From a virus (Duplodnaviria; Caudoviricetes): a stretch of 64,000 nt of DNA. The stretch lies in IMG/VR virus record IMGVR_UViG_3300024262_000013; one strand, given 5' to 3'. Position numbers and translations under genes: made by a program. The notes beneath the pieces are model-generated. The model was not told the DNA's origin and did not search any database. It saw nothing but the letters and a program-made list of their open reading frames with translations. Positions 22,822 through 52,276 of the stretch are shown one piece after another (position 1 is the first letter of the stretch; each line of letters opens with the position of its first letter).

Positions 22822-22842
22822 AATTTATTTTAATTTGTTTTG

Positions 22843-22914
22843 TAGCCCGTAGCAGAATCGAACTGCTATTTCCAGGATGAAAACCTGGCGTCCTAACCGG
22901 TAGACGAACGGGCC
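22843..22914 (-). tRNA. tRNA-Glu (UUC)
   Basis: GGCCCGT/ACGGGCT acceptor; CCAGG-TT-TTC-AT-CCTGG anticodon arm; GTTCGATT T-loop. Confidence 0.93.
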
Positions 22915-23026
22915 AAATAAAAGAGAGACTTCGGGTCTTTCGAGGTTACTGATATATGGGGGTTAACCTTTACCTTTATCCATATAATCTCAGCTTCACT
23001 AATCTCTCTAATTGTAATGGGTTTAG

Positions 23027-23744: not shown

Positions 23745-23760
23745 AATTTCTAATTTTAAT

Positions 23761-23786
23761 TTAATTTTTATGTCAAAGAACTCACT
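23761..23786 (-). promoter_or_regulatory. boxA-like element GTTCTTTGACAT within a 26-bp direct repeat (second copy 24169-24194)
   Basis: TTAATTTTTATGTCAAAGAACTCACT identical at both sites; related motifs at 24718-24729, 25045-25056 and 52667-52678. Confidence 0.6.
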
Positions 23787-24076
23787 TCACTTTTTAACTA
23801 TTAGCACCATCTATAATATAATATAAATGGTCAAGCTGTAAACACCTAAGGTTGGAGGGTGTGTTTTACCTCTTACCAGATTCTTAACTGAATTCCACCA
23901 TATTACAATACAGGTGGTACACTTGATAGATTTAATATGTACTCTCAGCTCTTTTGGTTTCTGCAACGTTACCATTGAATTATCCTGTCGGGTGCAGACA
24001 TAGGTACTGAGGTTATACAATTTATATTCTACCTTTATTTAGTGATATCTCACAAGGTCATAGGTTTAACCTTTAG

Positions 24077-24148
<72 letters not shown>

Positions 24149-24193
24149 ATTTATTTTTTCTTAATTCTTTAATTTTTATGTCAAAGAACTCAC

Positions 24194-24270
24194 TGGTGGA
24201 CCTTGATGGACTCGAACCATCGACCTACGCATTATGAGTGCGGTGCTCTAACCAACTGAGCTAAAAGTCC
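24194..24270 (-). tRNA. tRNA-Ile2 (CAU, lysidine type), CCA encoded
   Basis: GGACTTTTAGCTCAGTTGGTTAGAGCACCGCACTCATAATGCG; resembles bacterial Ile2 rather than Met. Confidence 0.8.
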
Positions 24271-24473
24271 GTTAACAGTCTATTTTATCCAACTACAACT
24301 GTCACGGATGTCCCAATAAAGTATAATCAATATTGGTTAGGAATAAAGTTTTTATTTTTTAGAAGAACTCAAACTCCGACTAGCATACTCACTAGTTGAT
24401 TAGTCACTATAAGGATTCTACCTTATTTCTCTTCATGTATGACACATTAGTCAATGTTACTTTGACACGTTAG

Positions 24474-24547
24474 TACACCCATCAGGATTCGAACCTGAGA
24501 CCGTCTCCTTAGAAGGGAGATGCTCTATCCAGCTGAGCTATGGGTGC
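24474..24547 (-). tRNA. tRNA-Arg (UCU)
   Basis: TCTCC-CT-TCT-AA-GGAGA; GCACCCA/TGGGTGT acceptor. Confidence 0.93.
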
Positions 24548-24613
24548 ATATTTGTAGGGTTCTTTTTTAAAGTTACATAGTTCCTACTAGTATTGTGTAA
24601 CTCCCTACATTAG

Positions 24614-24698
24614 TACCGCTGGGCGGACTCGAACCGCCACGGGATTTCATCCCAACAGATTTTAAGTCTGTCATGTCTACCAATTCCATCACAGCGGC
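24614..24698 (-). tRNA. tRNA-Leu (UAA)
   Basis: ACAGA-CT-TAA-AA-TCTGT; long variable arm GGGATGAAATCCC. Confidence 0.93.
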
Positions 24699-24747
24699 AT
24701 TTATATTAATCTATAATTTCAAATAACGTTTTTGTCTTTCGACTATG

Positions 24748-24755
24748 CAAATATA
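24748..24755 (-). promoter_or_regulatory. internal TATATTTG promoter upstream of tRNA-Leu
   Basis: TAnnTTTG match followed by a boxA variant GTTATTTGAA. Confidence 0.55.
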
Positions 24756-24802
24756 CTACACAAAAAATCAACTAACAACTATCTTAACTAATTTTTTATT
24801 TG

Positions 24803-24876
24803 TAGGAATGGGGGGATTTGAACCCTCGACCTTGACTATATAAGAGTCCTGCTCTAACCAACTGAGCTACATCCCC
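24803..24876 (-). tRNA. tRNA-Ile (UAU)
   Basis: GGACT-CT-TAT-AT-AGTCA anticodon arm (G27xA43 mismatch); GGGGATG/CATTCCT acceptor; A73; one T-stem mismatch. Confidence 0.8.
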
Positions 24877-24934
24877 ATATTGAAAACACCTATAAATTAT
24901 GTAGAGGAGCAAAACTCGATTTTTGTGTTAGTAG

Positions 24935-25007
24935 TGACCCCTCAGGGGTTCGAACCCTGGACCCTCACATTAAAAGTGTGATGCTCTACCAGCTGAGCTA
25001 AGAGGTC
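24935..25007 (-). tRNA. tRNA-Lys (UUU)
   Basis: TCACA-CT-TTT-AA-TGTGA; GACCTCT/AGGGGTC acceptor. Confidence 0.93.
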
Positions 25008-25072
25008 AGTATTTTACCGAATACTGTGTCGTTACTTAATCCTGATGTCAAAGAACGTTATTAATATAAAAC

Positions 25073-25098
25073 AAAAAACCCGAACATCTCTGTTCGGG
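25073..25098 (-). terminator. intrinsic terminator (candidate attenuator) upstream of tRNA-Lys
   Basis: Minus strand CCCGAACA-GAGA-TGTTCGGG-TTTTTTG: 8-bp stem, GNRA loop, U6. Confidence 0.8.
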
Positions 25099-25129
25099 CT
25101 TGTCTTTTTCATAGATTTAAGTCTATTTT

Positions 25130-51972: not shown

Positions 51973-51994
51973 TGGTGGAGGCGGAGGGATTCGA
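51973..51994 (-). other. isolated tmRNA/tRNA-like 3' fragment TCGAATCCCTCCGCCTCCACCA
   Basis: Close match to the tmRNA 3' end (TCGAATCCCGCCGCCTCCA) but with CCA; no matching 5' half. Confidence 0.65.
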
Positions 51995-52151
51995 GTGATG
52001 ATTATAAATTACTTGACGATGGTATCGGTGGTTATAGTTGGTTGAACATATAGAATTTATAAAAGCACCATTACAAATATAGTTTTTTATATTTAAACCA
52101 CAAAATAAATTAATGGAAATTTGTCGAATGATTTATGAGAATTATCCTTTT

Positions 52152-52229
52152 TGGGGTGGAAGATGGGACTCGAACCCACGACCCTCGGTACCACAAACCG
52201 ATGTTCTAACCATCTGAACTACAACCACC
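52152..52229 (-). tRNA. tRNA-His (GUG), G-1 and CCA encoded
   Basis: TCGGT-TT-GTG-GT-ACCGA; G-1:C73; two U:U mismatches in the acceptor stem. Confidence 0.85.
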
Positions 52230-52276
52230 ATTATAAAAAAATTAAACCCCACCGATTGGAGGGGTTTAAATAGTTG

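Follow-up and report, generated by a model that had tools for sequence, protein, structure and literature searches.

To read the codon AUA and yet not misread AUG is a classic problem of decoding, and nearly all bacteria use lysidine for it: the enzyme TilS modifies a tRNA-Ile2 that is encoded with a CAU anticodon, giving LAU. Mycoplasma mobile, Bifidobacterium and Neorickettsia read AUA without lysidine, by means of a UAU anticodon (PMC3575796; PMC1635315). A third arrangement, redundancy of LAU and UAU tRNAs in bacteria that keep tilS, is published for Lactobacillus plantarum, L. casei, Cyanothece PCC 7424 and Ferrimonas balearica (Taniguchi 2013, PMC3575796; Tomikawa 2018 J Biochem; Uesugi 2022 FEBS J). 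Taniguchi 2013 (PMC3575796) lists bacteria that hold both tRNAs together with tilS and reports 371 unique metagenomic tDNA-Ile(TAT) genes, 'presumably' bacterial; the redundant pair was characterised in L. plantarum, to go by the citation of Tomikawa 2018 in PMC10688831. For phages, a search of the full-text literature for tRNA-Ile(UAU) returned no more than a passing count in L. curvatus prophages, whose Ile tRNAs comprise seven CAU, one UAU, one AAU and one GAU (PMC10688831). Here we analyse a stretch of 64,000 nucleotides, referred to as the window, from an uncultured marine giant phage of the Caudoviricetes (IMG/VR record IMGVR_UViG_3300024262_000013), in which a single tRNA cluster encodes both a tRNA-Ile(UAU) and an Ile2-type tRNA(CAU). 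An earlier annotation, the sequence-only reading, had singled out the two genes (positions 24194-24876) as independent decoders of AUA. The explanation that we favour, and consider reasonably probable on genomic grounds, is that the pair provides a redundant supply of AUA-decoding tRNAs, one route dependent on TilS and the other independent of it. As such it would be a well-supported instance of an established trick, and no new principle is involved.

Two candidate decoders of AUA in one tRNA cluster

By ARAGORN the window holds eight tRNA genes, each of them encoded on the minus strand (Table 1), and a cmscan search with Rfam RF00005, run on a stretch that holds seven of them, confirmed these seven at 57-71 bits. 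Six genes lie inside 1 kb, in the transcription order Lys(UUU), Ile(UAU), Leu(UAA), Arg(UCU), Ile2-type CAU and fMet(CAU). Both proposed decoders were therefore called by two programs, the UAU tRNA at 62.0 bits (E 3.2e-12) and the CAU tRNA at 70.7 bits (E 1.3e-14), and from their anticodons the former would be the TilS-independent and the latter the TilS-dependent candidate, as had been suggested. Neither an elongator tRNA-Met nor a tRNA-Ile(GAU) was called by ARAGORN in the window. The CAU tRNA alone in the cluster encodes its CCA (24194-24196); the maturation of the others must accordingly depend on a CCA-adding enzyme.

Comparison with relatives argues that both genes are maintained. The nearest record (G001, also L245), a 161,923-bp contig from IMG/VR, shares ~97% identity with the window. 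Across the cluster the two differ at none of 384 nt in five tRNA bodies and at 19 of 764 nt (2.5%) in the spacers; one further change, from C to T, falls in the encoded CCA of the CAU tRNA. The gene order of the cluster is kept in a more distant relative (L249), whose CAU tRNA differs in its T stem by two changes that are compensated. A further comparison is provided by G002:C1 (also L138), a 248,233-bp contig in a 1.7-Mb Flavobacteriaceae metagenome-assembled genome (MAG), which has a Glu-Leu-Arg-Ile2 tRNA cluster with an endolysin-like gene adjoining. Its CAU tRNA equals that of the window except for three compensated anticodon-stem pairs, and the mismatch C27xU43 is kept in the CAU tRNAs of the window, L249 and G002:C1. 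Matches to this contig were found for 11 of the 87 window proteins, at 31-74% identity and including a syntenic protease block, and it probably represents a distantly related jumbo phage that was binned with bacterial contigs; the possibility that it holds the host's native tRNA cluster was dropped in view of the endolysin-like neighbours and the 11 matching proteins. Taken together, the UAU and CAU genes are real and under purifying and compensatory selection.

The tRNA-Ile(UAU) and its family

The UAU tRNA is an ordinary class I molecule; its variable loop measures 5 nt, and a second arm is lacking. Its anticodon loop, CUUAUAU, places a U at position 38 (C32/U38), and it also carries G1.U72, G4.U69 and A73. 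In the cmscan alignment 27-43 (G,A) and also 50-64 (A,C) are marked as non-standard, so that all three atypical features noticed earlier, U38, G27xA43 and A50xC64, are present. Mismatches at 27-43, giving 4-bp anticodon stems, are common among bacterial tRNAs (PMC13092985), and A50xC64 is a change private to this lineage and no design feature.

A scan of IMG/VR for the exact anticodon arm of this tRNA yielded 36 contigs, and an alignment of 24 distinct sequences was built from this set and from related sequences of a broader first scan. Standard pairing holds in 94.8% of cells, and 11 of the 21 pairs have changed on both sides. In 500 shuffles neither the paired fraction nor the covariation score of the real sequences was reached, and pairing falls to 31-51% when the partners are slid against each other. 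G27xA43 occurs in every member (24/24), a count for which the selection itself required that arm; the mismatch also persists in a sub-family with covarying lower stem pairs (GGAUG/CAUCA vs GGACU/AGUCA). Position 38 is a pyrimidine (Y38) in all 24, and G1.U72 is found in 20 of them; A38 occurs in 42 of 65 UAU tRNAs of the unbiased scan, among the matches listed. Because the UAU gene is unchanged in G001 and the family covaries above shuffles, the pseudo-tRNA that would have undone the original proposal seems unlikely.

The sister sub-family with the stem GGAUG/CAUCA has a peculiarity of its own. Three of its IMG/VR contigs (L017, L077, L097) also encode a tRNA-Ile(AAU), which is unusual for bacteria, together with tRNAs that ARAGORN labels SeC(UCA) or Stop(UUA), possible suppressor tRNAs or signs of recoding.

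Identity of the CAU tRNAs

A CAU anticodon is shared by tRNA-Ile2, the tRNA-Met used in elongation and the initiator, tRNA-fMet, and the assignment rests on the remainder of the molecule. The CAU tRNA next to tRNA-Arg is marked by A3-U70, C4-G69, U5.G68, C27xU43, A37, A38 and A73, and it has no initiator marks (U12-A23; anticodon stem CCGCA/UGCGU). According to Silva et al. 2006 (PMC1635315), A3, G3, C70 or T70, that is, a pair 3-70 other than C-G, rules out both Met and fMet, and C4-G69 and C5-G68 are frequent in tRNA-Ile(CAT); the pair 5-68 is here U.G and not the frequent C-G. In all of 5426 complete E. coli genomes the closest gene is a RefSeq tRNA-Ile, at ~81% identity, and two aligned matches have the CAT anticodon and the same acceptor stem as the phage tRNA. 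Its first 26 nt and CUCAUAA loop are found exactly in nine bacterial genomes, one of which holds an Enterococcus tRNA array with two fMet, one elongator Met and this third CAU type side by side; the 5' half of the phage tRNA is identical to that third, non-Met and non-fMet, tRNA. Because of A3-U70 and C4-G69, the E. coli tRNA-Ile matches and the identity with the Enterococcus array, the gene is assigned to the Ile2 type and not to elongator Met, as the sequence-only reading had it.

The second CAU gene of the cluster went unmentioned there. It shows A11-U24 and G12-C23, which are full discriminators of fMet (Silva et al. 2006, PMC1635315), an anticodon stem that ends in three G-C pairs (GGG/CCC) and an A1xC72 mismatch, and is accordingly assigned as an initiator tRNA-fMet.

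Distribution of the UAU tRNA and of the pair

A narrow UAU pattern, one D-arm sequence followed by CTTATA, occurs in at least 119 IMG/VR contigs, and ARAGORN called a tRNA(UAU) in 63 among the matches listed; these include some giant viruses of eukaryotes and many contigs with typical phage tRNA sets. An Ile2-type CAU tRNA is also present, in the stretch examined of each contig, in 7 of the 36 contigs with the exact arm (G001, L249, L220, L226, L230, L233, L235), and in L226, L230 and L233 the two genes are adjacent; ~29 of the 36 show the UAU tRNA without it. The pairing thus recurs in several unrelated contigs and is not exceptional among phages, contrary to the rarity implied at the outset.

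No close relative was found among deposited phages. The cluster produced only two 52-nt tRNA matches by megablast, a 672-aa protein encoded next to it had no tblastn match, and blastn of the UAU tRNA against 50,697 deposited phage records returned, among the matches listed, nothing above ~80% over the full length, a generic tRNA similarity. We did not find this phage UAU family, with its signature of G27xA43, Y38 and G1.U72, described in the literature.

Host and host machinery

Shine-Dalgarno (SD) signals are lacking upstream of the 87 window open reading frames (ORFs): SD-like 4-mers precede 6% of them against a background of 6.9%, and the leaders are A-rich. In the contigs of the UAU family the figures are 4.0% of 423 ORFs and 9.2%; SD-using phages, scored by the same method, reach 57%. 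A missing SD signal combined with A-rich leaders is the Bacteroidota pattern. Because of this and of the related jumbo-phage contig in a Flavobacteriaceae MAG, the host is likely to be a member of the Flavobacteriaceae or another Bacteroidota.

That bacteria avoid UAU anticodons was borne out for this group. The D-arm pattern with CTTATA matched none of 401 Flavobacteriaceae genomes, and the control pattern, the D-arm with CTCATA, matched 32 of 41, once each, which reveals a single native Ile2 gene. A real UAU tRNA was found in 1 of 151 Bacteroidota genomes. This lone copy (L255; G405:C45:2919-5953), which shows the signature of the phage family (G27xA43 and C38), lies in a dense array of ten tRNAs (Asp, Gln, His, Arg, Ile(UAU), Leu, Met(CAU), Ile(GAU), Lys, Asn) that may be a prophage or mobile tRNA array.

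TilS is encoded in 5 of 5 candidate host genomes. A phage-encoded TilS was not found in a search that covered ~170 kb of a roughly 300-kb genome (PF01171, no match in G001; SGGxDS motif absent from all reading frames in the window). The presence of TilS in the candidate hosts bears on the foremost alternative, namely that only the UAU tRNA decodes AUA and that the CAU tRNA is a passenger inherited with an earlier Leu-Arg-CAU cluster; whenever its synthesis outpaces TilS it would escape modification, receive Met from MetRS and act in elongation as a tRNA-Met. The absence of an elongator tRNA-Met from the window would fit, as would the CAU-Arg-Leu block without a UAU tRNA in the distantly related G002:C1 and the many family contigs with a UAU tRNA only; moreover, the unmodified tRNA-Ile2 of a tilS deletion strain was charged with Met and bound only AUG (Köhrer 2014, PMC3919564). 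We nevertheless hold this alternative to be unlikely. Besides the candidate hosts' TilS, the Ile2-type discriminators and compensated stems of the CAU tRNA are kept across relatives, and the recurrence of the pair in unrelated phages, sometimes in adjacent genes, argues that both tRNAs are kept for the same task.

Charging of the UAU tRNA depends on the host's IleRS. The E. coli enzyme, of the bacterial type, charges UAU 360-fold worse than LAU, and the UAU-only bacteria Bifidobacterium and Neorickettsia have a eukaryote-type IleRS (Taniguchi 2013, PMC3575796). Acceptance of U34 would be expected of an IleRS with Arg or Lys at the site of E. coli W905 or of a eukaryote-type IleRS, although for the latter the same work argues by conjecture and not from measurement (PMC3575796). 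In 5 of 5 Flavobacteriaceae the IleRS is of the eukaryote type (type 2), ~1140 aa long, with tRNA-synt_1, Anticodon_1 and a DUF5915 C-terminal domain; its top NCBIfam match is ileS, MupA/MupB-like. DUF5915 behaved as expected in controls, being present in B. thetaiotaomicron, Thermus, Deinococcus, Corynebacterium and archaea and absent from E. coli and B. subtilis. Because the Flavobacteriaceae enzyme is of the type argued to accept UAU, a Bacteroidota host, itself an indirect assignment, could plausibly charge the phage tRNA.

Codon demand and a leader ORF

ATA was said to be common in the AT-rich genes of this phage, and it is: the 87 ORFs contain 568 ATA codons, which amounts to 39% of Ile codons and to 30.9 per 1000, a higher frequency than that of ATG (27.9 per 1000). 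The genome GC is 31% and A-ending codons dominate. TTA (51.9 per 1000), AAA (69.9), GAA (59.3) and AGA (18.5) are preferred codons, so that the anticodons of the cluster match the most-used phage codons; codon use in G001 gives the same picture. AUA is heavily used, and the host serves it from a single Ile2 gene.

Upstream of the cluster lies a leader ORF of 26 codons, which reads AAA ... AUA AUA UUA AGA; these are the codons read by the downstream tRNAs, roughly in gene order in the window. The leader of L249 (4950-5020, minus strand) has a different sequence but is likewise rich in AUA, UUA, AGA and AAA and retains AUA UUA AGA and AUA AUA. These leaders fit a link between the operon and the decoding of AUA, UUA, AGA and AAA codons. 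A scan of the cluster for sigma-70 promoters gave 16 hits against 11.7 in shuffled sequence, not above expectation.

Probable redundant decoding of AUA and its alternatives

On the explanation that we favour, both genes would be working tRNAs in a phage cluster that tops up the decoding of A-ending codons. Host TilS would turn C34 of the CAU tRNA into lysidine, after which IleRS could charge it and it would read AUA instead of AUG. The UAU tRNA would pair directly with AUA, with no requirement for TilS, and would most likely be charged by the host's eukaryote-type (type 2) IleRS. With two routes, the decoding of AUA would withstand a limited TilS capacity or a limited supply of either tRNA. 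For this pair we infer transcription, aminoacylation, modification of U34 and C34, discrimination of AUA from AUG, and host identity.

Several observations weigh against redundant supply. The excess of ATA over the candidate hosts is modest, 39% of Ile codons against about 30%, and makes codon mismatch alone a weak driver; the host values are 27.5 per 1000 (30% of Ile) in Flavobacteriaceae MAG loci and 22.9 per 1000 (29%) in other Flavobacteriaceae loci, from small samples and for a host that is itself assigned indirectly. A TilS gene could lie in the ~130 kb of the genome beyond the search. The UAU tRNA of L. plantarum was reportedly uncharged, and A38 is reported to be an identity element for IleRS in E. 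coli, for which reason U38 may hinder the charging of the phage tRNA. Finally, among the 24 family members the window copy alone fails to pair at 50-64 and alone has G.U at 4-69, and these two weakened pairs, A50xC64 and G4.U69, could mean relaxed selection beside a second decoder.

The last point leads to the suggestion that the UAU gene of this phage, redundant beside the CAU tRNA, is decaying or poorly functional, which we think rather improbable. In addition to the two weakened pairs, its Rfam score of 62 bits is exceeded by four of the other six tRNAs that the Rfam search covered. Against decay, the gene is identical in G001 across spacers diverged by 2.5%, and the cloverleaf is accepted by ARAGORN and Rfam. 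An A.C can replace a G.U with the same geometry, and the pair 50-64, in the family mostly U.G, G.U or C-G, is G.U or U.G in 15 of the 24.

Conversely, the UAU tRNA might do more than proposed: with its 4-bp anticodon stem and a possibly unmodified U34 it might read AUU, AUC and AUA, or carry another amino acid. Extended wobble has been proposed for 4-bp anticodon stems (PMC13092985), and the lack of a tRNA-Ile(GAU) in the window would leave room for it. Against this, a B. subtilis tRNA-Ile with unmodified UAU bound AUA far better than AUU or AUG (PMC3919564), the window ORFs give no sign of an altered code, and GAU and UAU tRNAs occur together in three family contigs (L220, L221, L223). Such broad reading or recoding is very improbable.

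Phage tRNAs that escape tRNA-targeting defences have been published, among them anticodon-loop variants of mycobacteriophages and the tRNAs of T5, which act against PARIS and retron systems. Evasion of anticodon nucleases had also been raised for the present UAU tRNA. Here, phage tRNAs would replace host tRNAs that are cut or depleted, two different loops would defeat any single nuclease, and Y38 with G27xA43 would make a poor substrate. Both features are present in 24 of 24 members, G27xA43 being partly built into the selection, and the CAU tRNAs of G002:C1 and the window differ only by compensated pairs of the anticodon stem. We know of no nuclease aimed at tRNA-Ile, however, and the anticodon loops of the Lys, Arg, Leu and CAU tRNAs are canonical and identical to those of Flavobacteriaceae tRNAs; loops altered from those of the host, as nuclease evasion would have them, are not seen, and for the UAU tRNA there is no host counterpart to set beside it. 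RNA-ligase (tRNA-repair) families were not found in G001 or G002:C1, the PF09511 search having lacked a positive control. We regard counter-defence as improbable. By weight, the alternatives rank from the CAU tRNA as Met elongator through anti-nuclease backup and a decaying UAU copy to broader reading by the UAU tRNA, each less supported than redundant supply.

Turnover of the tRNA repertoire

Genes for Glu(UUC), fMet and His(GUG) are missing from G001 as small clean indels (22836-23025, 23786-24168 and 51994-52276, respectively), so that the tRNA repertoire changes fast between near-identical phages and a Lys-Ile-Leu-Arg-Ile2 core is retained. What G001 lacks at the fMet gene is exactly the 408-bp unit bordered by a 27-bp direct repeat (Table 1). 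Recombination of tRNA cassettes could take place at this repeat; alternatively, it could act as a promoter or as a signal for processing.

Table 1. Features of the tRNA cluster and other tRNA genes, in coordinates of the window
Feature	Position	Strand	Remarks
tRNA-Lys(UUU)	24934..25007	-	first of cluster; ARAGORN and Rfam
tRNA-Ile(UAU)	24802..24876	-	class I, 74 nt plus one base, no encoded CCA; ARAGORN and Rfam
tRNA-Leu(UAA)	24613..24698	-	ARAGORN and Rfam
tRNA-Arg(UCU)	24473..24547	-	ARAGORN and Rfam
Ile2-type tRNA(CAU)	24194..24270	-	presumed TilS (lysidine) substrate; CCA encoded; ARAGORN and Rfam
Initiator tRNA-fMet(CAU)	24076..24148	-	ARAGORN and Rfam; missing from G001
tRNA-Glu(UUC)	22842..22914	-	separate, downstream of cluster; ARAGORN and Rfam; missing from G001
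tRNA-His(GUG)	52152..52228	-	distant singleton; ARAGORN; missing from G001
27-bp perfect direct repeat, copy 1	23760..23786		one border of 408-bp unit with fMet tRNA
27-bp perfect direct repeat, copy 2	24168..24194		abuts 3' end of CAU tRNA
Third repeat copy, 86% identical over 21 nt	25036-25056		core (minus strand) GTTCTTTGACAT; just upstream of tRNA-Lys
Leader ORF, 26 codons	25130..25210	-	upstream of cluster; AAA ... AUA AUA UUA AGA
Intrinsic-terminator-like hairpin and T run	25076..25101	-	between leader ORF and tRNA-Lys

Implications and comparison with known systems

This phage has both a presumed lysidine-dependent tRNA and a candidate direct UAU decoder, and the family of the latter is almost absent from the likely host phylum. 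If type-2 IleRS charges the UAU tRNA, phages can do without an essential modification enzyme of the host in reading a codon that accounts for 3% of those they use. The natural variants with Y38 and G27xA43 would then be suited to studying how a U34 tRNA avoids AUG, and there would be a bearing on the prediction of hosts and on engineering of the genetic code that makes use of AUA. A wider proposal, which we put forward tentatively and do not expect to hold in full, is that a large plain-UAU family (G1.U72, G27xA43, Y38) is carried specifically by phages of SD-less, Bacteroidota-like hosts and exploits their eukaryote-type IleRS for a TilS-independent AUA decoder that is never host-encoded, the 27-43 mismatch and Y38 being tuned against misreading of AUG. 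If true, much of the 'presumably bacterial' metagenomic tDNA-Ile(TAT) of Taniguchi 2013 would be viral. The family signature and its possible link to the IleRS type of the host are the parts most worth a bench test.

Among described systems, the bacteria with LAU and UAU tRNAs come closest: they likewise hold CAU (Ile2) and UAU genes for one codon with TilS in the cell, here in the candidate hosts. Unlike in those bacteria, both genes are here on a phage, the likely host family shows no UAU tRNA in 401 genomes, and the UAU tRNA has Y38 and G27xA43. With M. mobile, Bifidobacterium and Neorickettsia the phage shares a UAU anticodon predicted to read AUA without lysidine, and the latter two have a eukaryote-type IleRS, as do the candidate Bacteroidota hosts. 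All three, however, lost tilS and the CAU tRNA, whereas here both are kept, a redundant and not a replacement state; M. mobile, moreover, depends on Arg865 of its bacterial-type IleRS together with a ribosome that is co-adapted, unlike the situation proposed here. As in phage codon-supply clusters (Bailly-Bechet 2007, as cited in PMC10688831), the set of U34 tRNAs fits preferred A-ending codons, and phage Ile2(CAU) tRNAs and one UAU tRNA were already reported, as in the L. curvatus prophages (PMC10688831). What sets this locus apart from earlier phage clusters is that both AUA decoders stand in one operon and that its UAU family has been seen only in uncultured viral contigs.

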